Positions 6,208 to 53,900 of a stretch of DNA of 64,000 nt are shown piece by piece. Under the pieces are notes generated by a model. The model was given only the letters and a program-made list of their open reading frames with translations, was not told the DNA's origin and made no database searches. The stretch is from a virus. How positions within the stretch are numbered: position 1 is the stretch's first letter; every line of letters begins with the position of its first letter. The position numbers and the translations under genes were made by a program. The DNA is taken from positions 68,032 to 132,031 of IMG/VR virus record IMGVR_UViG_3300045988_167796; one strand, 5' to 3'.

Positions 6208-6211
6208 CATC

Positions 6212-6238: not shown

Positions 6239-6244
6239 TTTCAA

Positions 6245-6290: not shown

Positions 6291-6316
6291 AGTCTGGAAC
6301 CCTTGATTTTACAGGC
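6290..6316. repeat. 27-nt imperfect direct repeat copy B
   Basis: AAGTCTGGAAcCCtTTGATTTTACaGG. Confidence 0.5.
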
Positions 6317-6330
6317 TTTTTCAGAGGGCA

Positions 6331-6375
6331 AAATCAAAAGGTAATCAAAAAGGTAATCAAAACATTTGTTCGATT
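6331..6375. repeat. right arm of attP-like site: tandem GGTAATCAAA units followed by AACATTTGTTCG
   Basis: ggtaatcaaa at 6340 and 6352; same order as left arm. Confidence 0.55.
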
Positions 6376-6627
6376 TTTCCATAATTTTATAGGAAAGGAG
6401 TATCTTGCACGTATGATGAAAAAATATTAATTTAAGTCAGTAGTATTTATTGATTTAAATTAGTATTTTTTTACAGTAAAGAAGAAAGAACCAATACCTA
6501 TCAGCGTGCAATAATAGGTATGGCTCAATCCTCAATAATACTTATTCGTCGTTTACAATTATATAATACTACATGATAATATAAAAATCAATTTCTTTCG
6601 TTCGAGATAGTTCGATAAATAATCTCG

Positions 6628-6655
6628 TTTACAACTATACAATTTGTGGTATAAT
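6628..6655 (+). promoter_or_regulatory. sigma-70 promoter (TTTACA-16-TGnTATAAT)
   Basis: near-consensus -35, extended -10. Confidence 0.55.
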
Positions 6656-6685
6656 ATTCCAAAAGGATACAAGGAGGAACCACCA

Positions 6686-6949
6686 ATGCCTAGAGGAAGA
6701 AAACGAGTAGTAGAAATGTCAGCAGCAGACATCAAAGTTAAGATCGAATCTAATACTGATAGAATTGATGAACTTACAAACGAAATCAAAACTCTGAAAT
6801 TAGAAAATAAAAATCTTTTGAAAGATCTGACAGTAGCTGAATCTAAAGAAAAAGAAGAGGCTGCGAAAAGAGAGATAGAAGAGATTGCCGAGATGATTAA
6901 GAATAGCGGTAAGTCTTTTGAAGAAATAAAAGCATTATTAGAAAACTAA
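6686..6949 (+). CDS. small coiled-coil protein (88 aa, MPRGRKRVV...)
   Basis: ATG 8 nt after aaggagg RBS; ORF track lists longer upstream start 6644. Confidence 0.5.
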   Translation: MPRGRKRVVEMSAADIKVKIESNTDRIDELTNEIKTLKLENKNLLKDLTVAESKEKEEAAKREIEEIAEMIKNSGKSFEEIKALLEN

Positions 6950-9810: not shown

Positions 9811-9865
9811 ATGTGTACCTCCTTTACTTATTGATGCTTTATTTTAATAAAAATAATGTCATGTA

Positions 9866-9894
9866 TTGACAATTGTATATACATTGTTTAAAAT
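9866..9894 (+). promoter_or_regulatory. sigma-70 promoter TTGACA-17-TAAAAT
   Basis: consensus -35, good -10. Confidence 0.55.
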
Positions 9895-9936
9895 AGACTA
9901 TAGTGGCAGAAAATTTATATTTTGGGGGAAACCTTT

Positions 9937-10302
9937 TTGAAAAATAGAATCTGCGTTATCGTTTCGGTAGTACTATCCATACTGTTATGTATGTGCTTGT
10001 TTTATAATCTTGTCGCAGGTGCTCCAGAGGAATATGAATCTGCAATAAGATACATGATAAGCGCTGCTGGATTTTCTGTTATTGTCTCTGGCTTAGTCGG
10101 ATACTCCCTCTATAAAATTTTCTTGTTTGAAATATCAAAAGAGAAAAAAGATGTTAAAGAAACAAAGAAAATAACAGACAAATCATATCAAGATTCCTTA
10201 ACTGCATTAGTTAGTGCATTTGAAAAAGAAGGAGCGTTATCAGAAGATGAGATAAATAATCTACGCTCTTATTTAGACAAAATAGACAAATCGGAGGAAT
10301 AA
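9937..10302 (+). CDS. small membrane protein, partner of the M56 protease (ORF track start 9922)
   Basis: 2 TM segments; TTG start after gggggaa RBS; 4-nt gap to next gene. Confidence 0.45.
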   Translation: MKNRICVIVSVVLSILLCMCLFYNLVAGAPEEYESAIRYMISAAGFSVIVSGLVGYSLYKIFLFEISKEKKDVKETKKITDKSYQDSLTALVSAFEKEGALSEDEINNLRSYLDKIDKSEE

Positions 10303-10306
10303 CAGT

Positions 10307-11593
10307 ATGTTGCTATTATGGATGTCAGTTGCTGGATCAATTCCTCTGATTGTGTTTCTAATAACATGGTTTATTCAGAAAAACAGTTTTAATTATTCAC
10401 TTGGGAAGATATTGCTGTATCTGAGTATGATGTTCTACCTTGTGCCTTTTCAATTATTGACCAGGATGCTCCCAAATATCATGTACAATAATAACATCGT
10501 TAATAAAATTAGAATATTTAATTCATTGGAGTATCATTTTGAATATGATAAATCTGCATATATAAATATAGACGATGGAATTATGTGGGTCCCAAGATGG
10601 ATTATTTTCATTTTGCATATTTGGTTTATTATTGTTGTGTTTTTTGCAATATATCAAATAATGAAGTATAGAAAGTCTATACATTATATTTTAAAAGATT
10701 CCGAAGAAAGATCTTACGATATTAATGGTGCAGGAACTGTTTCTATTTTGATAAACAATAATATTACAACACCGTATACAGTTGGATTTATTCGTTTACA
10801 CATTGTCTTCCCGGAAAACATTATAGAATCCCAATATTCTTATTTGGTTTATAGACACGAGTTATGTCATGCGAAAAACTACGATGCGTTAATTAAACTT
10901 ATTTGCTTGATTATCATATGTCTTCATTGGTTTAATCCTATATCAATATTACTTTTGTTTTCGTATAGCACTTTATGTGAATATATAAGTGATGATTACG
11001 CTACAAAAGGACTGACTCATGAAGAAAAAAGAGAGTATGCAAAACTACTCTTGGATGTAGTGTCATCAAAAACAATGCCTGTTGTATGGAGAAATAACTT
11101 TTTGAGCACGGAATACCTATTGAAAAGGAGGCTGACGTATATTATGAAAAAGAAATTTTCAAAGATTCAAAAATTAATCACAGTTATAGTTTCAATTGTT
11201 ACGGTTTTAGCATGTGCTGTAACAGTATTTGCATACGAACCATTTGTGTCAACTACAGATAACGCAATAATTGAACTTTCGGATGGAGATTTTGTTGATT
11301 TTGGTTTTATTGAATCATTTGATAGTATTACAGATGAAATTAATTTCCATGGACATGAAGAAATATTCATTACAGATGACGGAGAGTATATTATTATCGA
11401 CAACGACCATTCATCATATGCCATTTGTAATCATACATTTGCAGATGGCAGATACTCAAAACATATCAGCAATAGTACTGGTGGATGTACGGTAAAGATC
11501 TATGATGCGCAGATTTGTACAAAGTGTAAATATGTCGTTGTAGGAGATCTTATTAGCACTACGACATATGTTACGTGCACCCATACTAGCTAA
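10307..11593 (+). CDS. BlaR1/MecR1-like M56 family membrane metalloprotease with Cys-rich C-terminal domain
   Basis: multi-TM N-term; HELCH (HExxH) followed by HWFNP, as in M56 signal transducers; C-term lacks a penicillin-binding fold and is Cys/His-rich. Confidence 0.65.
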   Translation: MLLLWMSVAGSIPLIVFLITWFIQKNSFNYSLGKILLYLSMMFYLVPFQLLTRMLPNIMYNNNIVNKIRIFNSLEYHFEYDKSAYINIDDGIMWVPRWIIFILHIWFIIVVFFAIYQIMKYRKSIHYILKDSEERSYDINGAGTVSILINNNITTPYTVGFIRLHIVFPENIIESQYSYLVYRHELCHAKNYDALIKLICLIIICLHWFNPISILLLFSYSTLCEYISDDYATKGLTHEEKREYAKLLLDVVSSKTMPVVWRNNFLSTEYLLKRRLTYIMKKKFSKIQKLITVIVSIVTVLACAVTVFAYEPFVSTTDNAIIELSDGDFVDFGFIESFDSITDEINFHGHEEIFITDDGEYIIIDNDHSSYAICNHTFADGRYSKHISNSTGGCTVKIYDAQICTKCKYVVVGDLISTTTYVTCTHTS

Positions 11594-38340: not shown

Positions 38341-41300
38341 TTACAATATTCTTCTTGGAACTCCGGCAGCATAAGCATCTTTTGCAATATTATTACTTAT
38401 CTTTCCGGTCATACTGTTAACGAATTCTCTGTTATTTACAAGCTGTTTCGATAATGCCTTTAAATCATCCATTACATTTTTGTCAACATTACCATTCACA
38501 GTAATCAAAGAATCATAATGTACTATAGGAGCATTTTCCGTATTATTGTAATATGTAGCATATTTATTTATGTTCTCACTAAATGCTTTCATAATATCCA
38601 TAGAAGGCTTTATGTTCTTCGCAAATTCTTCAGGTATTACATATTCCCCAGGTTTAATTCCAATGACTCCTTTATCGCCATTTGCTATCACAGCTTCACC
38701 GAGGAATCCTAACATATTAGCCGGGATATAGTTGTCAACGATACCACCTTTTGAATATCCTGCTTTCTTTAACTGGTTTAACAACCAAATATTCTGAGTA
38801 GCAGTACCAGAATACGTGCCAGATCCTTTCAGATTCTTCCAAAGTTGTGTTCTAGCAGCGTTATCAGATTTATAGCCATAATAAGCCATTCTATCTACGA
38901 TCGATACATCCTTGCTAAGGCTACTATTACCTTTCATGGATGTATCTTTTGCAATACCAGACCATATATCTGTATTTGTTGTTCCTGTTGTTGTATTATT
39001 TCCTTCTAAACTTCCAGTCCACTTCAACTCATCATTTTGAGTCGCGTTGTTATTATCTGCCAAAGTCCCGAACGTGCCAGGCTTTTCAACAACTGTAACT
39101 TTACAAGTAGATTTCTTTTTAGAACGTGCTTCCTCAACAGTAATTATTGCTGTACCTTTAGAGACAGCAGTGACAACACCTGTATTTAGAACTTTTGCAA
39201 CTTTGGGACTGCTTGAAGACCATGTGAAATTCGCAGGAGCATTTTCCGGAATGACATTTGCTTTTAAAGTGATCTTATCACCAATAAACATCGTCACTCT
39301 TGACTGGTCTAAAATAACCTTATCGGCTGAAACATATTCAATACCAGTTCCACCACCTAAAGAGTTATTACTGTTATTCACAGTATCTGCAACTTTAGAA
39401 GTGTTTCCAGATGTGAGAACTTTAAGTCCAGTATTATTGGAAGCCTGAACTGCTGTATCTGCTTTTGTATCTTTAGCGCTTCCGGTATTGAACACATTGG
39501 AAACTTCCTCATATGCAGATTTTGATTGCTCTAAAACTTCTTTTAGCTTCTGTTCAACAGTATCAAGTGAATCATTAAAAGTTTCTGATAACACAAGACC
39601 ATGGTTCTCAATAATAGAATCAAGATTACTAAAAGTACTTTCATACGATGTAGTTACTTGTGCAAGCATACTGTCAATAACCTGATTCTGCATCTCTGTG
39701 TTAGTACGCAGAGAATTAAGAGTGTTATCAAGATTCTTGTCAATATCTTCACTCAACTGATCGTATGCATCAGACTTCATTTCATATTCATGATTGTATC
39801 TGGTTTCTTCAAGTTCATCCTCTGCATCTGCAATCTGAGCCTTGATTTTAGCAAGACGGGCTTTTGAACTGGCATCCGTAACACCTTCAAGGGCTGCTGC
39901 CTGTGCTTTCAGAATATTCAGTTCCTTAGTCTGATTTTTCAGTTGTTTATCATAATCATGATATTTTTTCTTAGCGTCCAGAGCGTTCTTGTATCCAGTA
40001 ATATCTTCCTGCATTAACTCATTTTTCTTCTGTAGCTGTTCCTCATACAAATCAAGTATAGACTGCTTATATGTTTCAGCAGCTTTAGCAGAGTCAAGAA
40101 GACCATCCTGTAACTCTTTCAGCTTTTCATTATATTCTTCCTGTGACCAGTTACCGTTTGCATATTGCTCATTGAGATTATCAATCTGCTTTCTGTAATT
40201 CGCCATCTTGGTTTTGGTGGCATCAATACTTTCCTGGAGAAGCAGGAGATTAGTCAAGCCATTTTCTGTAAATGAACCATCCGAATCAGAAATGAATGTA
40301 TCAGAATTCATAAGGTCACGAAGAGAATCATATTCAGACACAAGATTGCTCAATTTTTCCTGTGCATCATCAAACGGCTTCCAACGAAGTTCCATCATTG
40401 AATTCTTAAGTTCTTCATTATCAGCAGAAAGATTCAATATTTCTACGTCAAGCTGAGAAATTTCATCTGCATACTTCTGATATTCTTCGCTGTTATATGC
40501 ATATTTCTCCATGCTCTTAGCTTTTTCTTCACGTTCCTTATACAGAGCTGCAATCTGACTGTTGTTATTTTTAATCTGCTCTCTGTAGTCTTGCTCAGTA
40601 ACAGTATAACCATCAGCAACTTCTTTATAATTCGTAGCAGCATCCAACTTATCTGATACGCGACTATATTTATTAACACGCCATTCCGTAATCTGTTCTC
40701 TGGACTCATCCAGTGTTTTCGTCCATTCTGTAAGGGATGTCATACTCTCATATAAAGCCCGTCCAACACCAGTAAGATTGGCCTGCATTTCGCGGTATGC
40801 TGTTGATTCTGTACCATATTTCTTACCGTATTCTGCAAGTTGCTTTTTATATGCATTGTATTCAGCCTTCAGCATTGCAATATTGCTCTTTTCATATGCA
40901 ATCTGTTGCTGGATCAGTTTTGTATAGCCGGAACCAGGAGAAATGGTCATACCGCTTGTTTCACGGTAATCCAATTTTGCACTGACTAAATCTTGACCTG
41001 TTTTATTCTTATTTATATAAGAATCGTATACATCCAATATATTAGAAAGTTTCTGTGCGGCAAGTTCTACCTGTTCAGCATATTTTTCTTCTGCTGACTG
41101 ACGGGCGGCAATAGCCTTGTCATACCATTTTGAATATGCTTCCACCTTGCTCAGTTCGTCTTCTGAAAGCTGTTGGATGTCTACAATACCTTCTTGAACT
41201 TTCTTTTTTAGTTCAGCAGATAATCCAACCTGAGAAGCAACATTGTCGGCATAAGCCATGTATTTTTTATAAGCATCTTTATAATATTTTACTTCTTTGC

Positions 41301-44300
41301 CTGTTAACGTTTCGGCAAGAGTGATATTCTTATTCTTCTGATTGATAGAAGACTTGTTTTCGGAAATTGCCTTGTACAGGTTGATCTTACTTTCTGTTCT
41401 GGATATGAGTGTTTCAATCCAATCTTTAACATTATCAGAGATTTTCTTGATAAGGTCTGAGAGTGCTTCGCTGGCTGTTGAAATAGAATCTGCAGAAGAA
41501 GAAAGATCGGAAGCGGCTTTTTCTAAGTCTTTAGAAGTCGATGAATCTGATGTTGTATTTTTATTACCGCCAATAGTTTGTCCTGAACTATTTATGGTAG
41601 CATAAGCAGGCATACCATTATAAGCTAATGTACCGGACGCAAGGGCACGAGCATGTCCTTTTGCTTTACCATGCTTCATAAGATCTTCTGTTTGTTGTGC
41701 GTTTAAAACTATGTCGCCTTTCTTTAATGCCTGTGTATGCATTCCAGGAGGTAGTAACATCCATTTATCCCCACGGACAATTGACTCACGACCTAACTCA
41801 TTTACTAAAGCAACTTCGTCATGTTCTAATGCTACTTTTCCATTTGAATATGCATTCTTATAATTAATTGCATTATATGCTGTTCCATAAGCATGTGTAG
41901 GAACTGAAGATGGAGACGACATTGTACCATGAGCAACCCCATTACCACTTTTATTTACTGTGATAGTAGCAGTTCTATGATTTATGCTTGCAACAGCTGC
42001 ATTTACTGCATTTATAAGATTGTTTGTATTACCATCAATTTTAATGGTTGCAGTTCTATGATTAATGTTTGCAACAGTTGTGTTTGCTACATCTATAGCC
42101 TGAGATGGGTCTGCATCAATTTTAATTTGTGGTTCTTGGTCTTTTGCGTATTCTACAGTTTCGTCTACTTTTTCTTTTGCTGGCTCATTATTACCATCAA
42201 TCGTAATTTCTGTAGTATTTTGGCTTGCAAGTAATTGACCAAATTGGTCTTCAGCCATCCTGACTGTAACAGATGCATCTGCGCCTTCTTTAATTGTCTG
42301 TAATGACTCACGTATTGCAGATAATTTTTCTGTAGCACCTTCATCATTAACGTCAACACCACATTTAACAGCAAATTCAGGATCTTCCATACCAAGTAAA
42401 GCATCAATATCGCCATTTGTATTATTTAAAGCAAGATTTACTTTTTGTTGTATTTCAGTTTGTTCTATCAACGAACATATAGCATCGTACTCATCTGTTT
42501 CTGGAACAAGTTTTGCTTTGATATTAATCAGATCGGTATATCTTTGTGAAAGCTCGTCATCTGACATTTCAGAAATATTGGCGGTCAAATCAATATTTGA
42601 ATTAATCTGACCGAGTTCCTGCATCCTTTCAAGCTTAGTAATACCATCTTGTACAGACTGAGTATCAACATCAACTTTTGGTTTTAAAGCACCAATAGCT
42701 TGTAGTGCGTTCAAAAGCTGAGATACTTGTTCTTGTGATAATCCGGCCTGATCTGCAATTGCCTGTAAAGCATCTTCGGCAGCTGTCATATCACCAGATA
42801 CATCATATTGTCCATTTTCTAATTTGATATTCTGTAAATCTTCTGCACTATACTGGCGCAGTACATCGAAATAGTCTTTAAACGCATCTTTTTGTTCTAT
42901 CAACTTAAATTTTGTTGTGTCAAAATTCTTAGTTTCTTCTGGTGATAAAGATAATCCTAAGTCTTCAGCTGATAATGGATTTTCTATAGAACCAATTCCT
43001 GCGTCTTTTATTGCTTGATTTAAAGAAGTTTCGTCAACTTCGAAGTTGGTAATTTTTACGCCGTACTCTTTTCCAAGATTCTCAATTACTTTACCAAGAC
43101 CTTCTGCTAATTGAGTATTTCCGGATTTTTCAGCTTCTTTTCTTATTTTATTTAAATAAGATACTTGATCTTTTAAACTTGAAAGACCTTCTGCATATGA
43201 TTCTGCGGAAACCTGTTTATATGTTTCTGTAGCAGTGGTCAAATCAATAACCTGACCTTTTAACTGCTCAATAACTGCCATTTGATCTGCAATTGCTGTT
43301 TCGGAAGCGCCTGATGATTGCATTTCAGCAAGTTTTGCATACGCATCTACGAGTTTTGTATTTGCTTCCTGTATCTTTTCTGTTCCTTCTGTTTCAGAAA
43401 GAACAGTAGTATCAACAAATCCATAATCCTGTGTTTTAGCAAGAACATCATTAAAGAATTCTTGTCCCATATCCATATCATAAGCTGCCTTTTTAGCATC
43501 TTCGATATTAATTTTCCAAGACTTTACTCCGTTAGCAAGAGTTTCATATGTAGCGTATCCTTTTTTATTTAAATCTTCTAAGAAGTTTACTACACCTTTA
43601 GAAGAATCTTCTGTAAGATATCTTTGAGCTTTTGCATAGTTTTCTGCAAAGTTAGCAGCGTCTTCAAAACCGTTAGGAGATAAGTACTTAGCAACAGTTT
43701 TGAAATCATCTGTTCCAACTAAGTTTTTATCATATGCTTCTTTTGCGGTCTTTAAATCAGAAATCATCTGATCATAATTACTTCCGGCATTCTTTGTGTT
43801 CTTAGCATCTTGAATTGCCTGGAAATCAGACATTTGTTCCATCTGAGATTTATACTGAGCAAAATATTGAGCTTGTCTCTGCATTAATCCTTCAAGATTA
43901 CTTTGCATTGCCTGTAATTTAGAATCAGTATTTCCTAATCCTATTTGATCCTGATAAGACTTAATAGCATCTTTCTGACGGTTGATTTCTTCAGTAAATT
44001 TACCTTCCTGAATGGAATTTTGTTGATTGATAAAATCTTTAAGAGCAGAAGTGTTGACTTTTACACCTTTAGCTGATAAATAGAATACAGAAGACGGATC
44101 GTATCCTTCAAGGTCACTAAACTGAGTATTCAGCGCTTTTATTGAATCATTCGTTAATCCTGTTTCAGACTGAAGTTCGCTCATTGCAGATGAGAGAGAA
44201 GAAGAGAGATTTTCAGCATTTGTCACCGGAAGATTCTGCATAGCTTCAGTCCACTCATACTGACTAACAAGCATATTATCTATAGATGCATTGCATTCAT

Positions 44301-46638
44301 CTATAGCATTTTGATATTCTTTTGCTTTTTCAGGATTATCGTTATACGACTTTTTAAGATTCTCATTTTCTTTAATTTGCTCTTTAAGATTTGTAATCTG
44401 ATCATTACCATTAGATATTAATTTCGCATAGTCTGATTCATTTACTTTTAATCCAAGAGCAGTTTTATTATCCATATCTGACTGAATTCGAGAAGCATCA
44501 TTTTGAATATATGATAAATCTTTTCCAAGATCTGCTAATTTCTGTGTATTGACATCAATTTCAATCTGAGGTCTTAATGATTCAATTTTGGCAATCCATT
44601 CAGTAATTGTTGCATATGCCATTGACGGATCTGCTGAAAGCTTCAAAATTGCAGTCATTGCGTTTTCATCACCGGCATATTGTGACATTAATTTATTAAT
44701 GTTATTACCAAGAATTTCCTTATTAAAATCAGAACCGGCAGAAGCAAATAAATTGTCACTTATAATTTTCTGGATATTATCAAAGCTAATATCCGACATA
44801 TTCACAGAATCCAATAATGTCTGTATGTATTTCTCAACATTCTTCTTTTTTTCAGGATCTGTTATATCTTTAGTTTTTTCACGAATACCAATAAGTGACT
44901 CGTTAAGATTTGATAATGTTAATTTAGACAATCCTTGTTCAAGATTATCTGTCTCAGATGCAAGTTCCGGAAATTGTTGAATCAAATCTGTAATATCAGA
45001 ACTCTTAAAGTCTCCAGATTTCAAAGAATCCATAGCGGATTTTATAGATGATATATTAGACTGTAATTTGTCTGTAATATCTTGAATAGTAGAAGGAGCC
45101 TCTTCGCCTTTATCTAATAAATCCTCTAAGGAGATTGGATTTTCTTGAAGCACTTCTTTTGCTGCATCTTGTGCTTTCTTAAAATTATAAGAAATATCTT
45201 CGAGATTCCAATCAGAACCATCAAGATTTTGAGTTGAATAATAATTCCAGAAGTTTTCTATTTCTTTATCTGTCTTATCATTAAAGAAATCAAATAAACT
45301 TGGCCCAAAAACATTTTCGTCTTTTAAGAAAATATCTTTTAAGTTTTGTTTGATTCCATCTATATTATAAGCATTTGGATCCGCTATATACATGATTTGA
45401 TCTGCTAAAGTTTCAGCACTAATTCCTGCTTTATCTAAAGCATCAGACAATCCTTCTATTTCAGAAATTTTTGATATAATAGCGTCTTTTCCTTGTTTCT
45501 TCCCTAATCTAACAAGACTTTCTTCGACATTTTCAAATTTTGCTTTTGCAAATATGTTATTGATTTTTTCTACTTGAGATTTTGCCGCGTCTACACCTGT
45601 AGAGTAATTATTGTTCATATTATTTACTCTATCAACAATGCTCTCATATCCCGTCTTAACATTTCCGTTTACATCATAAAAATACGAAGCAGATTCATTA
45701 ATATCTGTTATATTCTCAGATATCTTATTATTAAGATCGCTAATCTCTTTTTCATATTCTTTAATTTGTCTTGTATTAGAATTATATTCGCGTTTATCCC
45801 AGAATTTTGTTAGATCTAAATTTGCTTGTTGTTTATAAAGTTCATCGCGTCTTTGCTGAACAAATTTCATTCTTTCGATCATACTGTTTGTATCATCAAT
45901 AATATCATTATTTGTATACGTTTCAGCACCATCTTCTGAGAATGTATATTTTTTATCTTTTGTTTCTAACTTTGTTTTTGCGTCTTTTGTAGCTTGTTCT
46001 TCTTGGATAGTTGCAATTTTTTGTTTTATTGCAATTTGCGCTTCCAGAAGGTCATTTTGTGTTTGCAAGTTACTTAATTCTGCCTGATCAACAATAGATA
46101 AATTTTCCATTGCATTTAATTCAGCAATTCTTGATTTTGTTGTTTCAAGCTGAGAATTTAATGAATCTAATTCTGATTTTGTAGATGTGAATGTACTGGA
46201 AGATTCGTCAAAATGCTTATTTGCAGTTTTTTGTGTGAAAACAAATTTATCATCTAATTTTTTAAATACTGCAAATGCCGCTGCAGATGCTACAATAGCT
46301 CCTGTAAGAAGAGGAAATGCAGTTACAACGCCTTTTATAACCGTCCACAGTCCAGTAAGAGCATTCTTACCAGTGCTAGCCATTTCTGCAAGTTTTCCAC
46401 CGACACCAGTTGCTGCGGTACCGACATTATTGAGAGCAGCTTCTGCTTCAGCTATATCACCAAGATTGAATGCTTTATATAATGCTTGAACGTTAGTATC
46501 TTTACCAAGATTTGAATATTTTGATAACAATTCTGCTGCTTTTTCTACGGAACCAGTCCCTTTTAACAGTTTATATAAATCATCTATGTTAGAAGTCTGT
46601 ATTGCTTTTATAATTTTCCCGATATTACTTAATGACAA
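38341..46638 (-). CDS. tape measure protein, distal segment (2765 aa; hydrophobic TMP core, long coiled coils, C-terminal Big_2 domain)
   Basis: N-term GVGGKLAEMASTGKNALTGLWTVIKGVVTAFPLLTGAIVASAAAFAVF typical TMP hydrophobic block; annotated TTG start has no RBS and the frame is open upstream to 46683. Confidence 0.6.
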   Translation of the reverse strand: MSLSNIGKIIKAIQTSNIDDLYKLLKGTGSVEKAAELLSKYSNLGKDTNVQALYKAFNLGDIAEAEAALNNVGTAATGVGGKLAEMASTGKNALTGLWTVIKGVVTAFPLLTGAIVASAAAFAVFKKLDDKFVFTQKTANKHFDESSSTFTSTKSELDSLNSQLETTKSRIAELNAMENLSIVDQAELSNLQTQNDLLEAQIAIKQKIATIQEEQATKDAKTKLETKDKKYTFSEDGAETYTNNDIIDDTNSMIERMKFVQQRRDELYKQQANLDLTKFWDKREYNSNTRQIKEYEKEISDLNNKISENITDINESASYFYDVNGNVKTGYESIVDRVNNMNNNYSTGVDAAKSQVEKINNIFAKAKFENVEESLVRLGKKQGKDAIISKISEIEGLSDALDKAGISAETLADQIMYIADPNAYNIDGIKQNLKDIFLKDENVFGPSLFDFFNDKTDKEIENFWNYYSTQNLDGSDWNLEDISYNFKKAQDAAKEVLQENPISLEDLLDKGEEAPSTIQDITDKLQSNISSIKSAMDSLKSGDFKSSDITDLIQQFPELASETDNLEQGLSKLTLSNLNESLIGIREKTKDITDPEKKKNVEKYIQTLLDSVNMSDISFDNIQKIISDNLFASAGSDFNKEILGNNINKLMSQYAGDENAMTAILKLSADPSMAYATITEWIAKIESLRPQIEIDVNTQKLADLGKDLSYIQNDASRIQSDMDNKTALGLKVNESDYAKLISNGNDQITNLKEQIKENENLKKSYNDNPEKAKEYQNAIDECNASIDNMLVSQYEWTEAMQNLPVTNAENLSSSLSSAMSELQSETGLTNDSIKALNTQFSDLEGYDPSSVFYLSAKGVKVNTSALKDFINQQNSIQEGKFTEEINRQKDAIKSYQDQIGLGNTDSKLQAMQSNLEGLMQRQAQYFAQYKSQMEQMSDFQAIQDAKNTKNAGSNYDQMISDLKTAKEAYDKNLVGTDDFKTVAKYLSPNGFEDAANFAENYAKAQRYLTEDSSKGVVNFLEDLNKKGYATYETLANGVKSWKINIEDAKKAAYDMDMGQEFFNDVLAKTQDYGFVDTTVLSETEGTEKIQEANTKLVDAYAKLAEMQSSGASETAIADQMAVIEQLKGQVIDLTTATETYKQVSAESYAEGLSSLKDQVSYLNKIRKEAEKSGNTQLAEGLGKVIENLGKEYGVKITNFEVDETSLNQAIKDAGIGSIENPLSAEDLGLSLSPEETKNFDTTKFKLIEQKDAFKDYFDVLRQYSAEDLQNIKLENGQYDVSGDMTAAEDALQAIADQAGLSQEQVSQLLNALQAIGALKPKVDVDTQSVQDGITKLERMQELGQINSNIDLTANISEMSDDELSQRYTDLINIKAKLVPETDEYDAICSLIEQTEIQQKVNLALNNTNGDIDALLGMEDPEFAVKCGVDVNDEGATEKLSAIRESLQTIKEGADASVTVRMAEDQFGQLLASQNTTEITIDGNNEPAKEKVDETVEYAKDQEPQIKIDADPSQAIDVANTTVANINHRTATIKIDGNTNNLINAVNAAVASINHRTATITVNKSGNGVAHGTMSSPSSVPTHAYGTAYNAINYKNAYSNGKVALEHDEVALVNELGRESIVRGDKWMLLPPGMHTQALKKGDIVLNAQQTEDLMKHGKAKGHARALASGTLAYNGMPAYATINSSGQTIGGNKNTTSDSSTSKDLEKAASDLSSSADSISTASEALSDLIKKISDNVKDWIETLISRTESKINLYKAISENKSSINQKNKNITLAETLTGKEVKYYKDAYKKYMAYADNVASQVGLSAELKKKVQEGIVDIQQLSEDELSKVEAYSKWYDKAIAARQSAEEKYAEQVELAAQKLSNILDVYDSYINKNKTGQDLVSAKLDYRETSGMTISPGSGYTKLIQQQIAYEKSNIAMLKAEYNAYKKQLAEYGKKYGTESTAYREMQANLTGVGRALYESMTSLTEWTKTLDESREQITEWRVNKYSRVSDKLDAATNYKEVADGYTVTEQDYREQIKNNNSQIAALYKEREEKAKSMEKYAYNSEEYQKYADEISQLDVEILNLSADNEELKNSMMELRWKPFDDAQEKLSNLVSEYDSLRDLMNSDTFISDSDGSFTENGLTNLLLLQESIDATKTKMANYRKQIDNLNEQYANGNWSQEEYNEKLKELQDGLLDSAKAAETYKQSILDLYEEQLQKKNELMQEDITGYKNALDAKKKYHDYDKQLKNQTKELNILKAQAAALEGVTDASSKARLAKIKAQIADAEDELEETRYNHEYEMKSDAYDQLSEDIDKNLDNTLNSLRTNTEMQNQVIDSMLAQVTTSYESTFSNLDSIIENHGLVLSETFNDSLDTVEQKLKEVLEQSKSAYEEVSNVFNTGSAKDTKADTAVQASNNTGLKVLTSGNTSKVADTVNNSNNSLGGGTGIEYVSADKVILDQSRVTMFIGDKITLKANVIPENAPANFTWSSSSPKVAKVLNTGVVTAVSKGTAIITVEEARSKKKSTCKVTVVEKPGTFGTLADNNNATQNDELKWTGSLEGNNTTTGTTNTDIWSGIAKDTSMKGNSSLSKDVSIVDRMAYYGYKSDNAARTQLWKNLKGSGTYSGTATQNIWLLNQLKKAGYSKGGIVDNYIPANMLGFLGEAVIANGDKGVIGIKPGEYVIPEEFAKNIKPSMDIMKAFSENINKYATYYNNTENAPIVHYDSLITVNGNVDKNVMDDLKALSKQLVNNREFVNSMTGKISNNIAKDAYAAGVPRRIL

Positions 46639-46660
46639 TATGATAAATAAGATGTATAAT
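46632..46660 (+). promoter_or_regulatory. sigma-70-like promoter ATGACA-17-TATAAT for cargo genes
   Basis: hexamers upstream of aaaaaaggagag RBS. Confidence 0.45.
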
Positions 46661-46686
46661 ATAAATAAAAAAGGAGAGCGATTTCA

Positions 46687-47112
46687 ATGTTAATAAAATG
46701 TCCTGAGTGTGGTAAAGAAGTATCAGATCAATCTGAAGCATGTATTCATTGTGGATATCCGCTGTTAAAAAACAGGAGATCGTCTGTGACTGAGTACCAT
46801 GGAGAATGCCCATTCTGTCATGCAATAGATAATTGGAGAATAGATACTGAAAAAGGAGAAGCTATTTGTAATAAATGTGGATGGCGAGAAACTATTGATG
46901 ATACGCAGTGGAAAATATATTGCAAGCTACAAAGAGAACGTGAACAAAAAGAATCCGAAAAAAAACAATCCGAGAATCTTCCAAAATGTCCAAAATGTGG
47001 TTCAACATCTATAGGAACAAAGAATAGAGGATATTCTCTTATCTGGGGATTTTTAGGATCCGGAAGCCCTAGAAATGTATGCCAGAAATGTGGCTATGAG
47101 TGGAGGCCGTAA
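46687..47112 (+). CDS. triple zinc-ribbon protein (3x CPxCG...CxxCG)
   Basis: strong RBS; three CxxC..CxxC pairs. Confidence 0.55.
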
Positions 47113-47134
47113 ACTTACCAAAAGGATATACACT

Positions 47135-47896
47135 ATGATTACAAATAATGAAAACGACAGAAGAATCATTAAAGAAACATACGATTATTTCAATAAAAAC
47201 GCTTATAGCATACAAGAAATGAGTATTGATAATATATATGTATGCAATGATATTCAAAACGACATTAATATATTTTTAAACAATGATCATATAAATAAGC
47301 AATGTAATGGTCATACTATTTATAAAAATGCAAAAAAAACTGAAGATATAATTATTTTAGTAGAATTGCGTGAAAATATGCCAGATAACATAATAACATT
47401 ATTCCACGAATTTATTCATGTGTATGATATCAAGTTGTTCTTACAAAAATATCATACTCTTGATAATGATTATTTTTATGCATATACAGTATGGAGTGAA
47501 TTTCATGCTTGTTATATAAGTGAAAAATTATTAATAGAATACTATAAAAATAATGGTATCCCAAATATAATAAATGATTTTTTAAGTACAAAAGAAGAAC
47601 AAATCAATGAAATACTTAAATATATAAGAATTGCTCACAACCGCGAGATGTCAATATTTGATAAAATGAATATTTTTGCTAAGCTTTTTCTTTTCGGGTA
47701 TTATGAAGATTGCGGCTATCATTTTGTATATGAATTTATAGACCATTTTTATAATGATTTAGAAGATCGTATTAAAAATTATAATATTACAAATTATTTA
47801 TATCAATGTTTGGAAAATGATTTTAATATTGACACTATTACTTATTTTAAAGAGTTGATTTTTGTTAAAGATATTAGCGACTCATCTACTTCATAA
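47135..47896 (+). CDS. HExxH-motif protein, possibly ImmA/IrrE-like metallopeptidase (ORF track start 47075)
   Basis: HEFIH motif; aaaaggat RBS before ATG 47135. Confidence 0.45.
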   Translation: MITNNENDRRIIKETYDYFNKNAYSIQEMSIDNIYVCNDIQNDINIFLNNDHINKQCNGHTIYKNAKKTEDIIILVELRENMPDNIITLFHEFIHVYDIKLFLQKYHTLDNDYFYAYTVWSEFHACYISEKLLIEYYKNNGIPNIINDFLSTKEEQINEILKYIRIAHNREMSIFDKMNIFAKLFLFGYYEDCGYHFVYEFIDHFYNDLEDRIKNYNITNYLYQCLENDFNIDTITYFKELIFVKDISDSSTS

Positions 47897-47910
47897 TACG
47901 TAAAACATTA

Positions 47911-47945
47911 AAAGAGCAGATTATTCTTTCTGCTCTTTATCATCT
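47911..47945 (+). terminator. rho-independent terminator (10-bp perfect stem)
   Basis: aaagagcaga-ttattctt-tctgctcttt. Confidence 0.55.
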
Positions 47946-48036
47946 TTATAAAATATTTTATTATCATCAATACATATTCCATGACATATAATTGTGCTAG
48001 AATCGATTATTTGATATCTATCTTTACATATAAACA

Positions 48037-48501
48037 TTAATTCCAATTCACCATCCATGATATCACCTCTTCAATTGTCATTTCTGGAAATACTGTTTTC
48101 ACTATTTCAAAAGTATGCTTTTTTACTATTGTTTCATTTATCTCTTGAAAATAATAATGTACTAATTCTTCAATAAAAATAAATAATTGCATATGTTTAT
48201 TATTGCATCTAATGATTTTTTCCATTGAATAAATAATCAATGGCATACATCTCCCATATGTTGTAATAATTTCTTCTGTCACTGAAAAACTTCCATCTTT
48301 AGAAAAAATTAAATTAACCGGAAGATACTTAGAAGGATCTATTTGTTTTTCGTACAACGATCTGCTTAAAGCTTCTAATCCTTTTGTAAATAAGCATGCC
48401 AACTGTTCTGGAACTTCATATAAAGCATTCATATGAATCCTATCAGAAAAATATGGCGGAGCTATAGGAGCATAAGTTTTTACTGAATTATCTATTCTCA
48501 T
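48037..48501 (-). CDS. hypothetical 154-aa protein inside TMP intervening sequence 2
   Basis: ORF track; aaaggatt RBS. Confidence 0.4.
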   Translation of the reverse strand: MRIDNSVKTYAPIAPPYFSDRIHMNALYEVPEQLACLFTKGLEALSRSLYEKQIDPSKYLPVNLIFSKDGSFSVTEEIITTYGRCMPLIIYSMEKIIRCNNKHMQLFIFIEELVHYYFQEINETIVKKHTFEIVKTVFPEMTIEEVISWMVNWN

Positions 48502-48911
48502 ATTGATATAATCCTTTGTATTATTTGTATGATTATATCATAAATAATTAAATATGCAAACTGTTTTTACCTTCATCAGCAAACGGCAGAAGAGTAGTGC
48601 CGAGTGGAATACCACTATTTTTTTACCTTGGAACATTCATTAAAAGCATATACAATTATGGCATGTATATACTCTCAGGAAGGGTGCTCTCTCTACACTT
48701 CCTAACTTTTTATATGTTTCCCTCGCCATTGCTTGCGCAACTTCTACTAACGTATCACATATTACTAAACGTAAGTTAGGTTGGCTCGTGCGTCACCGCG
48801 GAACATAAATATATTTCTATAAATATGCTTTTGTTTCATCCTTTTTCGCTGTAGCGGCTTCGACGAATTAATCCTGTATTTATTTTATGCCGATCATAAT
48901 CACTGCATTGA

Positions 48912-49385
48912 TTACCACGCCATTATGTGGTTCTCTTTACAATAACAGCCCCATAAGTTATATCGGGAATAACAGCCTGGATTTGGCTGAGCTACGGCAT
49001 TGCTAAGTCCTCCGGACTTAAAGAATTTAAATAATTGTGAAAGACCATTTTTACCAAATGATAAGCCAGCGATTGTGGCTACCAAAGTTTTGATTGGTCC
49101 AACTGTTTGTGCTAGATCTGTAAACGCCTCTGTAAGACTTATTACAAAATCCAGTATGTTTTTAGTTCCTGCAGAATCATAGAATGACAACCAGAACTCA
49201 TCCATTTGAGCTTTTATTTTAGTTATCTTACCTGTAAATGATTCTTCGTATTTTGCCTGATTCTCAAGTGCATTTCCTTGTGAATTTGTTGCTTCTGTAG
49301 CTAAAGACATAGCATCTGACCAGGCTGTAAGTATATTTTTGAATTTTGATGACTGTCTTGTCGATAAATTAAATACGATTCGCAA
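48912..49385 (-). CDS. tape measure protein, middle segment (about 130 aa of TMP-like sequence; 3' end probably intronic read-through)
   Basis: TMP-like hydrophobic GPIKTLVATIAGLSFG; no RBS; frame open upstream to HE stop. Confidence 0.45.
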   Translation of the reverse strand: MRIVFNLSTRQSSKFKNILTAWSDAMSLATEATNSQGNALENQAKYEESFTGKITKIKAQMDEFWLSFYDSAGTKNILDFVISLTEAFTDLAQTVGPIKTLVATIAGLSFGKNGLSQLFKFFKSGGLSNAVAQPNPGCYSRYNLWGCYCKENHIMAW

Positions 49386-49418
49386 GATCGTACCGATATT
49401 GTTAATTATTTTCTCCTT

Positions 49419-50333
49419 TTATTCTTCTATAAAAACTCCATATTTTATAAACATATCAAATAATATATCATCCATAAATAATTGGTCCCAGTATGGAATT
49501 CTAATAAGTTTAATATTATTTTGTTTACAGTAATCTGTTTTTATTTTATCTCTTCTTTGAACTTCTGCAAATCTGTTATTTGCTTCTTGTTCTGACATTT
49601 TATTTCCTATTCTAATTGATTTATGATGGAATTCTCCGTCGTATTCTATAGCAATATTATATTCATCTAAATAATAATCAAACGGAAGAGTGTATTTATC
49701 CTTACAATCGCTAAATCGTTTTTCTCTTGTGTATTTTAAATTCCACATATCCAGTATTTGTCCGATCATATTTTCGTAGAAATGACTTTTACAATGAGGA
49801 CAACTTGTGCTTTTTAATAAATTTCCTGAAAACTTTTCTTGAACACCAACATTTTTATGTTTGTTACATATATATTTTATATATGTATGGTTATTTTTAC
49901 TATAAGATTCTACAAATGTAAAATCTCTTTTCTTGCATTCTTCCTTCCAATAATCATTATTTTTTTTATGAGAATTTATTGTCTTTTCTCTTCCGCACAT
50001 AAAACATCCTATTCCTCTTAATAAGTCACATAAATTAATTTGCTGTATGCCATAATCAGGATGTTGTTTACATATATACTTCATTTTAGTTGTGTAATTT
50101 ACATATACTGTATCAAGTAATGTATAACCCTTTTTATCAAATAATTCTTTTACTTCTTGATATGTATAAATTTTTGTATTGTTTACAGTTTTTTCTTTTC
50201 TAATTAAACGAAGTCTTCTTCTTTTAGCTTTTATAGATTCTTCTGTAGTTTGAAAAAATTCAGACAATTCTTTATCTGTTTTATCTTTCCATAATTCTTT
50301 TAATTTATCTTCGTTTTCTTTTGTCCACTTCAT
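49419..50333 (-). CDS. intron-encoded homing endonuclease (tandem Zn-finger-like modules + PD-(D/E)xK/DUF559-like nuclease)
   Basis: two repeats KYICxxHxxxGxQ....LL..xxCxxC; C-term IEYDGEFHH...KTDYCKQNNIKLIRIPY; aaaggag RBS. Confidence 0.55.
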   Translation of the reverse strand: MKWTKENEDKLKELWKDKTDKELSEFFQTTEESIKAKRRRLRLIRKEKTVNNTKIYTYQEVKELFDKKGYTLLDTVYVNYTTKMKYICKQHPDYGIQQINLCDLLRGIGCFMCGREKTINSHKKNNDYWKEECKKRDFTFVESYSKNNHTYIKYICNKHKNVGVQEKFSGNLLKSTSCPHCKSHFYENMIGQILDMWNLKYTREKRFSDCKDKYTLPFDYYLDEYNIAIEYDGEFHHKSIRIGNKMSEQEANNRFAEVQRRDKIKTDYCKQNNIKLIRIPYWDQLFMDDILFDMFIKYGVFIEE

Positions 50334-50353
50334 ATATTATCTCCTTTGTATTA

Positions 50354-50548
50354 TCAATTTTTTGCATAAAAAATCGCCAGGGCTTTAAATAGCTCTGACG
50401 TTTTCGTGTACTTATATGTTGTTACTTCATTTATTACTTTTGTAAACGAAGGTTTTATACCGATACTCAATAAATATTCCTTTTCTGGAGTATATTGAGT
50501 AGAATATTCTTTATCATATTTTTTCATTATTCTATCATTAATTAACAA
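50354..50548 (-). CDS. small ORF within intron (uncertain)
   Basis: ORF track only. Confidence 0.2.
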   Translation of the reverse strand: MLINDRIMKKYDKEYSTQYTPEKEYLLSIGIKPSFTKVINEVTTYKYTKTSELFKALAIFYAKN

Positions 50549-50902
50549 TATCCTTATATTTTCATATAAGTCTAGACTATATCTTCACCTTCAGCATTAC
50601 CTGTTCAGGGTACACCATTTCCATTTAAGGGATTTTCACCTACTTCATTTGCGGTTAAGCCGTACTCCTATTGTTATAGATATTTATTCTCTAGTCTATA
50701 ACCCGACATGGGGATAGTCGTTAAGCGTTCTCCATATATAAAAATTATATTTAGGAGCTTCGTTGTGGATTGCCTATTGTTGCATCTTCTTATTTTTTAT
50801 AACATTCATATTACTTTTCAATAATATTGTAGTATAAAAAGCTTTAAGGGTTCCCACAGTTAGATGTATTCTTAATATATATTTCTATATATTCAGCCCA
50901 AA

Positions 50903-53900
50903 TTAAGCTGCTACGTTATATGAAATGTTACTTTGCTGTGCGTCGGACAGAGTATCCCACTTAGCACTCAGTTCACTCAAAATAACGTCAAGATCACGGA
51001 ATGATCCGTCAACATTGTATACTTCAATTCCAACTTCATGAAGAGATTTAGAAGCGTTAGATAATTCTTCATTACTTACATCTGAAGCATATTGCGGCAT
51101 TTTACCGACTTTTGATATTCTAGTAACAATTGTCTTTATTGCGTTTCCGATGGATCCACCATCTTCACGTGTTCTTTCGGCCACTTTTGCAGAAACAGCA
51201 GCTAACTGTTCATAAGACATACCTGCATCATATGCAACCTGACCAGAAGCTTGCACAGCATCAGAAATAACCTTTATTCCACGCGCATAATCTATTGCGA
51301 CGTTCGATGAAATCTTATCCAATACATCAACTACATGCATAGAAGCATCTGCAGCACTTTGAGATCCATCTTCAAGCATATTGAACTGCTGTAAAATGCC
51401 TTGTACCTGGTCAGCAGCAGTAGAAGTATCAACGCCGCTTAAGTTACTCAGAATAGCTGTAGGTTTTGCAGTTTCATTAATCTCTTCTGCAGTGGTATTC
51501 ATATTTGCATAAATCTGATAGATATCCATTGCATTTTCAAGAGACATAGAAAGATCCTGCGCCATATCAATAGCAGATTGACCTAAACTATTAAGCTGTT
51601 CTTTGGTAATATCCATTGTATAGCTAATAGTAGTAAGATTATCATCATATGCTTTAAGCGTTGAAAATCCTTGTTGAAGTTGATTTATCATTGTAGATAT
51701 AATTCTATAGCTACTTACATATGAAGTAACCATTTGCATAATGTCTTTAAGACTTCCACCAGCAATACTTCTTAATGCACTTCCAAATGTTTTGAATGAT
51801 GCATTAGCTTTTGATTGCTCTGTAGATGTAATACGAAGTGCATTATTATATGTTTGTAATGTACCAGTTACAGTTGTGATTGCTCCTGCTTCGTTTTGAA
51901 ATTGAATTGTCGCAGTACCTGCATTTTCATTTACTTTAGATGATACTTCCTTACCAAGAGAATTTAATTCTGCATATTGTTTTACTCCTGCAATAACATC
52001 AGATATATCTTTTGTAATACCTTCGCTACCAGAAATGAGAGTTCCTTTACTGTTAGTCTTATCATATGCTTTTGCATTTTTAGAAAATTCTTTGATTTTA
52101 TCTGACAGTTCATCTAACTGTTTTATTTTTTCATCAGTGTCAGTTGTATCGTTTGATAAAATACCATTAAAAGCTTCTGCAAATGAATTAATTTTTGTAG
52201 TGTAAGATGCTACTTTATCTGAAGAATTAGCAAGCTTATTTAAATTTGAAATTTGCTCTTCAATGTTAAGCGCTTTTCCGCCAAATCCATCTTTCCAAAA
52301 AGCCATTGTGTTTGATGCTTTTTGACTTGCTTCTATAAACTTCTGGCTATATGTAGACGCATCTCCGTTATAATCTCTTGTTAATTTATTAATTTCTTCC
52401 TGTACGCTAGCAATATCATTTTTTGCCTGAGCAGAAATAGATCCTGTTTCTTTTATCTTAGATGCAAATGTTTCTAACTGATTAGTAATTTTCTGATTAT
52501 TAGATGCTAATGAATCAGTAGTTTTTGAATCAAAAATAGACTGAATATTACCAATAGCATTTTGCTGGAAATCCTGTCCGTAGATATTATTAACTTCTTT
52601 TTTTAAACTTTCATAAGATGCTCTAACAACTTCCATTGCATATATCTGTTTATCAATATCTCCTGAAAGAAATTGAGAATTATTTTTACCGGACATTTGT
52701 AGAATTTTATTCTCAGAATCTCTCATAGCAGTGTAAGATTTCTTCATAGCTTCTACAAGATTATCATTGTTGTTCTTTGAATTCTCAATTGCCTTTGTAT
52801 ATGATTCATTATACTTATCTACTTTATCAGGACCTAAGATACTTTTATTTTTAGATAAGAAATCACTTTTATAAAAAGTATCTACCTCGGACTTTAATGC
52901 GGAAACTTTATTTTTTGCATTTTCAATTTCAGACGTATAGTCTGCGAACGGATTGTTTGCTTGTTTACCTTGAAGAGAGAATAATTCATTCTGAGCTTTT
53001 TCTAACTCTTTTACTTTTGCAAGAGCCTTATCGTATTGATCAATAATCGGTTTCTTTACTTCTTGATTATCCTTTGTATTTTTGAGATTGTCTGTAGATT
53101 TTCTTAAGTTTAATTCTGCATCTCTATATGCATTAGCAATGTCTTTTGAAATAAATTTATCTTTATCTTTAAAAAGATCATTACTAATAATTGAGTCTAA
53201 AGATTTTTTGTCAGATTTAATATTTTTATTTAAATCCTCAATTATTTGCGAATTTTGTTGATCAGAAGATTTACTTATTTCTTTTGATAAATCATTTTGT
53301 AATTTAGATATATTCTTTGAAAGATTTATCGCTTGTTTTACTTTGTTTGTTATGTATTCATATATCGCATCAACATTATTAAAAGCAGAAGTGCTTTCTG
53401 TAGGCAGGTTTATATTACCAAAATTTTCAGATGCATTATTCTTGTCAATAATTGAGAGCCATTTATCCCAGTTAGATTTAAAGCTTTCTGTAACAATTGG
53501 TAATGATTGTTCTGATTTATTTAAAGACTTGAATTTTGCATCAAATATAGATAAATCAAGATTTGTAGATGCACCAGATAATATATTACGAAGATTTTCT
53601 ATTTGAGACGCAACTTGATCAGAATACTTGAAAGAGTCTTTCAATCGTTGTTCAAGATCATTCAGTTCTTGTTCTTTTGCCTTTTTCTTTTCATCAAGTA
53701 AAGCATTCTTTTTATTAGAATCAGATATTCTTTTGTTGTCTTTTTCTAAATTTTGCTGTTGCTTTATTTGTGTATTACATTCAGAAATTGAGTCGCGTAG
53801 TTTACCAGCAGCTTCTGCTTGTTCGTAGATACCAGATGCATCCTTTAATTCTTCATTTAAATCTAACATCCTACCTACTGACTCAGACAATTCGTCTGAT

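Follow-up and report, generated by a model that had tools for sequence, protein, structure and literature searches.

The pairing of an M78 protease with an XRE-type regulator is an established paradigm (PMC7907104; bioRxiv 10.1101/2022.04.27.489752). CapH+CapP-type pairs of an HTH protein and a peptidase regulate immune operons (bioRxiv 10.1101/2022.04.27.489752), and COG2856-XRE pairs have been put forward as toxin-antitoxin-like modules (PMC2701414). The proteases of this group (ImmA, IrrE and CapP; M78, COG2856, PF06114) are small cytoplasmic HExxH zincins with a thermolysin-like core, and their genes lie directly downstream of a small regulator gene (for ImmR, DdrO or CapH) on mobile elements and near defence-type cargo. 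With regard to cargo carriage, IStrons have their cargo downstream of P9.2, and splicing removes it together with the rest of the unit (PMC4227781). Here we describe a phage locus that recalls both kinds of system. It was found in a 171.7-kb metagenomic phage contig, of which a stretch of 64,000 nucleotides (the window) was analysed, and was compared with related loci, which are referred to by L numbers.

A two-gene operon opposite to the tape-measure gene

Two plus-strand ORFs are listed in the window at 46687..47112 and 47135..47896, which code for a triple zinc-ribbon protein of 141 aa and an HExxH protein of 253 aa, respectively. The single HEFIH motif of the latter had been noted correctly in the original prediction, while its length (254 aa) is to be corrected to 253 aa counted from ATG 47135, which is preceded by an AAAGGA ribosome-binding site 8 nt upstream. 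This site lies inside the 22-nt intergenic gap between the zinc-ribbon stop codon and the HExxH start codon. A sigma-70-type promoter (ATGACA-17-TATAAT) is located at 46632..46660 on the plus strand and agrees with 11 of the 12 consensus positions, bearing out, as a match to the consensus, the promoter that the operon had been predicted to own. A bidirectional intrinsic terminator (47911..47938) closes the operon and also ends a convergent 45-aa ORF. Judging from these signals, which in the window enclose exactly the zinc-ribbon and HExxH genes, promoter, genes and terminator together make up a transcription unit of their own.

The operon had been placed inside a late structural gene. The locus is indeed that of the giant tape-measure gene, but the operon is actually encoded on the other strand, where it occupies part of a gap of 2.3 kb (46639..48911) that separates two ORF segments of this gene, whose coding sequence on the minus strand consists of three segments (56131..50906, 49361..48912 and 46638..38341). 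The gap holds on the minus strand, in this order, a conserved RNA-like element, a 154-aa ORF (48037..48501), a match to phrog_33355 for which homologues were found in L025 and L060 and whose own promoter-like site is at 48560..48532, and the 45-aa ORF (47921..48058), whose counterpart in L019 is a 48-aa ORF; then comes the convergent plus-strand operon. The bidirectional terminator is situated between the two tape-measure segments that flank the gap. At the other end, the -35 hexamer of the operon promoter overlaps the first codons of tape-measure segment 3 on the other strand, and the same overlap was seen by eye in L019 and L024.

The GC content is 22.6% in the HExxH gene, 37.3% in the zinc-ribbon gene and 34.6% in the tape-measure gene. 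Because of this contrast, the zinc-ribbon gene has the look of a resident, and the HExxH gene that of cargo acquired by a later insertion beside it. The arrangement resembles phage morons and accessory hot spots, which also have their own promoter and terminator, opposite orientation and deviant GC, and whose cargo differs between near-identical phages. Unlike morons, this hot spot is inside a tape-measure coding sequence and not intergenic, and it is flanked by the conserved RNA-like element and the constant zinc-ribbon gene. One explanation of the operon is that its genes are unlinked neighbours, the HExxH protein being a stand-alone effector, for instance a protease for abortive infection, exclusion or anti-defence directed to a host or rival-phage target, whose gene by chance landed beside the resident zinc-ribbon gene in a cargo hot spot. 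The difference in GC (23% vs 37%) would agree with this, but a promoter and a terminator that enclose no other genes than these, only 22 nt apart, would not, and together with the evidence from relatives given below we regard it as somewhat unlikely.

The HExxH protein and its family

The HEFIH motif of the HExxH protein occupies residues 91-95, encoded at 47405..47419. The protein has no match in Pfam, PHROGs, NCBIfam or PADLOC. When the window proteins were compared with these databases, nothing significant was obtained for the operon pair besides the zinc ribbons, and with PADLOC-DB v2 the best E was 0.02 and no defence-component model was matched. A word-indexed protein search with the HExxH protein returned the self-match only, and tblastn against GenBank phages gave no match. 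When 1.84 billion cluster representatives were searched exhaustively with phmmer, 24 relatives of about 230-290 aa were recovered (E 2e-12 to 8e-4), which are only 20-31% identical to the window protein. In the alignment of the resulting 25 members, four residues (H91, E92, H95 and D98) never vary, and E122 and F123 hardly do; E122, encoded at 47498..47500, is kept in at least 90% of the members. The family motifs read HELTHvyD and wSEFHA, with the Glu 27 residues downstream of HExxH. Since H91, E92, H95 and D98 are invariant despite such low identity, the HEFIH motif is not a chance occurrence. The 25 members gave only two isolated weak matches in PADLOC, a point that does not favour a stand-alone effector, and nothing useful in PHROGs. 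A scan with a narrower family alignment detected 2 metagenome loci and 0 genome loci. By its sequences and their contexts, this is a small family that travels as phage and plasmid cargo.

The AlphaFold2 model made with the family alignment was of high confidence (pLDDT 90.9, pTM 0.90), while single-sequence prediction was unusable (pLDDT 40.6). In the model, a small beta-sheet is followed by the HExxH helix (82-106), a Glu-bearing helix (114-139) and a helical C-terminal half. This succession of beta-sheet, HExxH helix and Glu-bearing helix is that of the gluzincin fold of clan MA(E) type, and the modelled HExxH and downstream Glu, the putative third zinc ligand, are on consecutive helices in the M78-type arrangement. 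The HExxH protein is, on this model, probably an active zinc metallopeptidase of gluzincin fold, and it is predicted to be cytoplasmic and catalytically competent. Among predicted viral structures (BFVD), its best matches were IrrE-like, SprT-like and baculovirus XE small zincins, all of them weak. Foldseek against solved structures found nothing significant, and a profile search of solved-structure (PDB) sequences found a motif-only match and no IrrE chain at E<=10.

It was originally supposed that the protein is ImmA/IrrE-like. The gluzincin fold, the intact HExxH plus Glu and, weakly, the IrrE-like structural neighbours agree with this idea, whereas membership of PF06114 (Peptidase_M78) does not hold: none of the 25 members (0/25) matches this model, even at E<=1. 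A profile comparison between the HExxH family and the M78 protein of L024 aligned only a 12-residue motif with a probability of 19%. With ImmA and IrrE the protein shares its small size, the predicted cytoplasmic location and a thermolysin-like core, and its all-helical C-terminal half is another difference from them. As far as these searches reach, the family is absent from Pfam, NCBIfam, PHROGs and PADLOC and is not demonstrably M78. The protease family is new, yet its fold is known and its genomic logic is familiar.

Other HExxH proteases are similar to the family in part. SprT/Spartan/Wss1 and Atp23 (M76) share the local motif HEL(T/I)H(V/A)(Y/F)D with it, and weak Pfam matches were found to Peptidase_M76 (7/25) and SprT-like (4/25), all below the curated cut-offs. 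SprT-type zincins use a third histidine. No third histidine is present among the invariant or near-invariant columns of the HExxH family, which has the Glu on the next helix instead, and no DNA-binding tail like that of SprT/Spartan is evident in the HExxH protein. In BlaR1/BlaI, an HExxH protease (M56) is likewise paired with a small repressor, but the HExxH protein has neither a membrane-span-like hydrophobic segment (by eye) nor a sensor-domain match nor an M56 profile match; the only M56 match, a weak one, was that of an unrelated 226-aa HEYIH protein of L024. A BlaI-like and BlaR1-like pair is encoded elsewhere in the window at 9922..11593.

The triple zinc-ribbon protein

The 141-aa protein was predicted to consist of three zinc ribbons, and this was confirmed by matches above the curated cut-offs to four Pfam models: Zn_Ribbon_1 (33 bits, cut-off 25), Zn_ribbon_3 (32.1 bits, cut-off 27), Zn_Ribbon_TF (30.4 bits, cut-off 29) and Zn_Ribbon_Prim (25 bits, cut-off 23). 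The paired CxxC knuckles typical of zinc ribbons are C5/C8-C19/C22, C41/C44-C61/C64 and C101/C104-C132/C135. The first knuckles of all three ribbons recur at the DNA level as a repeat, ATGYCC..(A/G)TGTGG. The part conserved in the family is the charged linker and the third ribbon, CP.CGS...G(F/L)LG(S/A)G...C..CG, and this C-terminal signature reads CPKCGS...GFLGSG...CQKCG in the window protein. A profile search (E<=1e-3) collected 2,186 proteins, mostly of 130-190 aa, many of them on phage contigs of 50-240 kb. The zinc-ribbon family is therefore about 100 times as large as the HExxH family with its about 25 representatives, though it was sampled in few genomic contexts.

Swappable cargo at one hot spot

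Co-occurrence of the pair in other genomes had been named as a check, and the zinc-ribbon and HExxH pair was found to recur in no fewer than three phage lineages that have diverged from each other, every time at the same location. An HExxH-family gene directly follows the zinc-ribbon gene in L035 and L060. In L014/L042, the order is zinc-ribbon gene, HExxH sister-family gene and HExxH-family member, and in L011 it is zinc-ribbon gene, a gene for a 382-aa protein, a distant HExxH sister-family gene and HExxH-family member; in L036, a gene of the sister HExxH family directly follows the zinc-ribbon gene. An unrelated non-catalytic fold together with a pair never seen again had been named as the outcome that would contradict the original prediction; we found a zincin fold in the model and a recurrent pair. 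Every co-occurrence, however, is in the same tape-measure-gap hot spot with the zinc-ribbon gene divergent from the start of segment 3, and because they share this one hot spot they are not independent of each other.

At the edge of the island a zinc-ribbon gene is constant, whichever gene comes next. In L019, the closest relative, it is followed by a gene for a 392-aa protein without HExxH, in L031 and L053 by a gene for a DUF2513 protein, in L021-L023 by a gene for a second zinc-ribbon protein, and in L024-L027 by genes for a second zinc-ribbon protein and the unrelated 226-aa HEYIH protein. Since the zinc-ribbon gene is constant whatever follows, and since the family sizes and GC contents differ, the adjacency is no independent evidence of joint function. 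Of the two-gene system that was predicted, the operon stands, and the functional pairing is a possibility. Such variation of the cargo between close relatives is what would be expected of unlinked neighbours.

On the other hand, HExxH relatives without any zinc-ribbon gene were found in 5 lineages, which again would favour unlinked neighbours. In L004-L007, the HExxH gene follows a gene for a 71-aa XRE HTH protein (HTH_3) at a prophage end, and a CHAT-like gene is next. In L015/L016, it follows a gene for a protein of 283 aa that has an XRE HTH at its N-terminus, in another tape-measure-gap island, which also carries a GmrSD_N gene. These two lineages have the exact order of XRE gene and then protease gene known from ImmR and ImmA. 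Furthermore, the HExxH gene of L008 follows a Bro-N gene, that of L017 is on a plasmid-like contig and that of L018 is beside a CHAT-like gene. The HTH-repressor partner expected of an ImmA-type protease is accordingly found in relatives (L004-L007 and L015/L016) and not in the window, where searches of Pfam, PHROGs and NCBIfam revealed no HTH gene in 46639..48911. In most contexts with enough flank, a same-strand gene of DNA-binding type is upstream of the HExxH gene, a regularity that unlinked neighbours would hardly explain. Downstream, a gene for a trypsin-like protease follows the HExxH gene in L014, L060 and L036, which is in line with unlinked neighbours.

The island cargo in relatives includes Trypsin_2, DUF3800, GNAT, PemK/MazF-like, GmrSD_N and Peptidase_M78 genes. 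By these domain matches the cargo is of defence and toxin-antitoxin type, and the HExxH gene is one of several alternatives in a variable accessory-gene island. The presence of MazF-like, GmrSD_N, GNAT, DUF3800, Trypsin_2 and M78 genes in the island elsewhere is also consistent with an effector that acts alone. Because the island carries such cargo in relatives, the accessory rather than virion function put forward in the original prediction is reasonable. From the gene contents, the two genes look like swappable accessory cargo and not virion machinery, and any mutual need is a proposal. Whatever the mechanism is, this hot spot inside a tape-measure gene is a site where gut-type large phages swap defence-like or toxin-like cargo, and new accessory functions of phages could conveniently be sought there.

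The same comparison bears on three further explanations. If the HExxH protease processed tail proteins such as the tape measure, the location of its gene among the tail genes, the sole point in favour, would be accounted for; but the gene is on the opposite strand under its own promoter, is absent from L019, whose tail genes are near-identical, and has relatives at plasmid-like and prophage-end loci, so that we consider a virion role extremely improbable. A toxin-antitoxin-like addiction module, with the protease as toxin and the zinc-ribbon protein as antidote or the reverse, would match the toxin-antitoxin-like nature proposed for COG2856-XRE pairs (PMC2701414) and the MazF-like gene in the island of L031. 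An obligate toxin-antidote pair should not separate, and in L019 only the zinc-ribbon gene of the two is retained, in other elements only the protease gene, which makes the module very unlikely.

The third possibility is that the zinc-ribbon protein serves the tape-measure gap, either as regulator of the overlapping divergent promoters or as cofactor for joining or expression of the segments, with the HExxH gene as passenger. In the loci where the relevant edge is visible (the window, L019, L014, L024-L027, L031, L060 and L011), the zinc-ribbon gene is the first opposite-strand gene beside the start of segment 3, its -35 hexamer overlaps the first codons of that segment, and its GC is like the phage backbone. 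These features would be natural for a protein that serves the gap, but in L021-L023 the zinc-ribbon gene is surrounded by a lysogeny module, and what adjoins it of the tape-measure gene is no more than a fragment. Moreover, RNA or DNA binding by the protein is purely proposed, and its family is very large with few contexts sampled. Such service to the gap is in our estimate distinctly unlikely.

A possible regulatory protease

The explanation that we tentatively prefer is that the HExxH protein may be an ImmA/IrrE-like regulatory protease, which acts on a small nucleic-acid-binding partner encoded just upstream. A signal-gated zincin would bind and then cleave, or sequester, the small nucleic-acid-binding regulator from the adjacent upstream gene, and loss of this regulator would switch a transcriptional programme, as with ImmA, IrrE and CapP. 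We prefer such a switch because of the operon structure, the conserved catalytic site and predicted fold, the HTH, Bro-N and zinc-ribbon genes recurrently located upstream, and the M78/XRE paradigm; that the family is mobile cargo is likewise plain from its loci. The upstream genes of the members are HTH_3 in L004-L007, XRE in L015/L016, Bro-N in L008 and zinc-ribbon in the window, L035 and L060. In L014 and L011, the zinc-ribbon gene heads the same operon as the HExxH member with one or two genes between.

In the window phage, the sole candidate partner would be the triple zinc-ribbon protein. DNA binding is proposed for it. In contrast to ImmA and IrrE, the gene upstream in the window codes for a triple zinc-ribbon protein and not for an HTH protein, and cleavage of this protein is a proposal. 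That the zinc-ribbon protein is the specific substrate of the HExxH protease is accordingly more doubtful still than the regulatory protease itself. The explanation would presume proteolytic activity, a particular substrate, a regulatory output and a timing of expression. Counting against it are the lack of PF06114 matches, the independence of the zinc-ribbon gene from the gene that follows it, the unequal family sizes, the GC gap and the single hot spot. If the protease acts on the zinc-ribbon protein, the switch known from ImmA, IrrE and CapP gains a new protease family and a non-HTH partner.

Interruptions of the tape-measure gene

Tape-measure segment 1 (50906..56131, minus strand) has a PhageMin_Tail domain and corresponds to positions 469-838 of phrog_4211, and the middle segment (48912..49361, minus strand) corresponds to the consecutive positions 839-967; segment 3 (38341..46638, minus strand) has 2765 codons. 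When the three segments are fused conceptually, a single alignment with the tape-measure protein of Lactococcus phage WRP3, which is uninterrupted, spans both junctions, the identity being low and weakest around the second one. The first interruption (49362..50905, minus strand) splits the gene between ...YNVAA and TRQSS..., and L019 has an intron-less allele that reads straight through ...YNVAATRQSS.... It contains an exact group I core element, AAGAUAUAGUC, has U50906 before the 5' splice site and G49362 at the 3' end, and shows blastn similarity to the lysK intron of Staphylococcus phage K. It also holds a homing-endonuclease ORF (49419..50333), which matches an HNH endonuclease PHROG at 1e-44. 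As far as the sequence tells, this is an unexceptional group I intron that encodes a homing endonuclease.

The second interruption is the gap that contains the operon. A scan of IMG/VR found no tape-measure allele without the gap, and at the point from which segment 3 is conserved, neither a start codon nor a ribosome-binding site is convincing. This conserved start reads LSLSNIGK in the window and L019, and QNT(I/V).NYD in L014 and L024. Two arms border the gap on the minus strand: arm 1 (48954..48969), just ahead of the RNA-like element, is 16 nt long and complementary at 15/16 positions to arm 2 (46616..46631), UAAGUAAUAUCGGGAA, which encodes LSNIGK at the start of the conserved segment 3 coding sequence. 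The complementarity is kept despite lineage-specific sequences (15/16 in the window and L019, 14/14 in L014 and 12/13 in L025). When G-U pairs and one mismatch were allowed, equally good duplexes were found by chance elsewhere in the islands; because similar duplex scores arise by chance, the pairing is noteworthy by position only.

Several candidates for the gap were rejected. It is not recognisable as a group I intron like its neighbour, since no Rfam match was obtained at E<=10 and the core element AAGAUAUAGUC present in the neighbouring true intron is absent. A group II intron was rejected because the 5' end is not GUGYG and a domain V-like hairpin is missing close to the 3' edge; Rfam gave no match to it either. 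Site-specific inversion between the arms was simulated for the window and L014, and in neither case joins the segments or supplies a start codon with a ribosome-binding site. The arms are not transposon terminal inverted repeats, as they vary with the flanking exon sequence and not with the conserved element. Recoding of stop codons was also rejected; with the standard code, ORFs as long as 2371 and 2765 codons can be read without a break.

The gap might be a new kind of intervening element in a phage structural gene, with the conserved element as a ribozyme-like RNA and the island as cargo; the parts of the tape-measure message, 2-6 kb apart, would then be brought together again in cis or in trans, though we judge this unlikely. 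Under this assumption, the cargo would comprise the constant zinc-ribbon gene, perhaps as the element's own cofactor, and the swappable defence-type genes. The layout of the gap, a structured element after the upstream coding segment, then cargo, then a downstream segment without start codon, is like that of IStrons, with their 5' group I ribozyme, kilobases of cargo and distant 3' splice site. By this analogy, an IStron-like or trans-acting joining of the tape-measure segments is conceivable. Unlike IStrons, the gap has no Rfam group I match at E<=10 and no group I core element, and its cargo includes no transposase but includes antisense genes and a bidirectional terminator.

The conserved RNA-like element of ~400 nt (48560..48953, minus strand) comes directly after the middle tape-measure segment. 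The isolated element had no Rfam match at E<=10, and a scan of bacterial genomes for the RNA motif gave chance matches only and no prophage copy. The elements of the window and L019 are 96% identical, and those of L014 and L025 are ~92% identical overall. These two types share ordered motifs, and one hairpin shows a compensatory change, so the element looks like a structured RNA. The identity between L014 and L025 is near-complete at the 5' end; its onset is abrupt and falls in the final codons of an exon that has otherwise diverged.

Gene content and mobility of the island operon

The operon contents of the window and three of its relatives (L011, L014 and the closest one, L019) are nested subsets. 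That of L011 (2997..6756) comprises a zinc-ribbon gene, a gene for a 382/392-aa protein, a sister HExxH gene of a second, distant family, and an HExxH gene of the same family as in the window, and the L014 operon (3941..6753) is the same without the 392-aa type. The window operon retains the first and last of these four genes (zinc-ribbon and family HExxH) and no others, and L019 (5001..6593) has just the first two, the zinc-ribbon gene and the 392-aa protein gene. The C-termini of the L019 392-aa protein (...ISESSTF) and the window HExxH protein (...ISDSSTS) are alike, and this likeness suggests that one gene replaced the other as a cassette at a common 3' flank.

A near-identical copy of the L014 zinc-ribbon gene (98% at the protein level) was found in L021 (4497..6311), a different 58-kb phage, accompanied by a 107-aa fragment of the start of tape-measure segment 3. 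Its neighbours there are genes of a lysogeny module (integrase, HTH_3, ArdC and CI-like), so the island edge has moved as one block.

RNA-like element and small ORFs of the island

In the window, L014 and another related locus, L025, the middle tape-measure segment is directly followed by a conserved RNA-like element, 400-520 nt long. A stretch beside it shows complementarity to the beginning of the tape-measure segment downstream, which has no start codon; element with arm and partner arm are at 48560..48969 and 46616..46631 in the window, 9700..10227 and 3864..3877 in L014, and 9473..10030 and 4921..4933 in L025. The sequences of these arms are not the same between lineages, and an Rfam search with the element gave no match. 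The L014-type element is present on about 19 IMG/VR phage contigs. At its end (L014 9590..9700, minus strand) stand a consensus promoter (TTGACT-17-TATAAT) and, some 65 nt further on, a strong intrinsic terminator, an arrangement that might represent a small RNA or an attenuator.

Between the element and the zinc-ribbon/HExxH operon, the window has two overlapping minus-strand ORFs of 154 aa (48037..48501; phrog_33355) and 45 aa (47921..48058). The latter is conserved in L019; the former has homologues in L025 and L060, with IEE(L/I)VH(Y/H) as a shared motif.

Other insertions and neighbouring genes

The tape-measure gene is also split, between ...YNVAA and TRQSS..., by a minus-strand group I intron (49362..50905) carrying ORFs of 304 aa (homing endonuclease, 49419..50333) and 64 aa (50354..50548). 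Part of this intron is similar to the lysK intron of Staphylococcus phage K. L019 has no group I intron at this site and carries another endonuclease insertion (DUF4379) farther upstream. The three tape-measure segments (38341..56131), if joined, would give a product of about 4,600 aa (1742 + ~125 + ~2760), unusually long even among large siphophages.

A tyrosine-recombinase ORF (Phage_integrase) is located at 4941..6149 on the plus strand; in the distant relatives WRP3 and Kirov (L002 1..811 and L003 1..785), a recombinase gene is immediately upstream of the tape-measure gene.

The window phage has a second pair of small regulator and HExxH protease, a BlaI-like repressor gene (slightly under the Pfam cut-off) with a BlaR1-type Peptidase_M56 gene right after it (9922..11593, plus strand). 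At a prophage end (L004 7655..11020), genes for an XRE-HTH protein, an HExxH relative, a 173-aa protein and a coiled-coil CHAT-like protein stand in this order and may form a regulated caspase-like effector module; a CHAT-like gene again adjoins an HExxH relative in L018 (647..2254).
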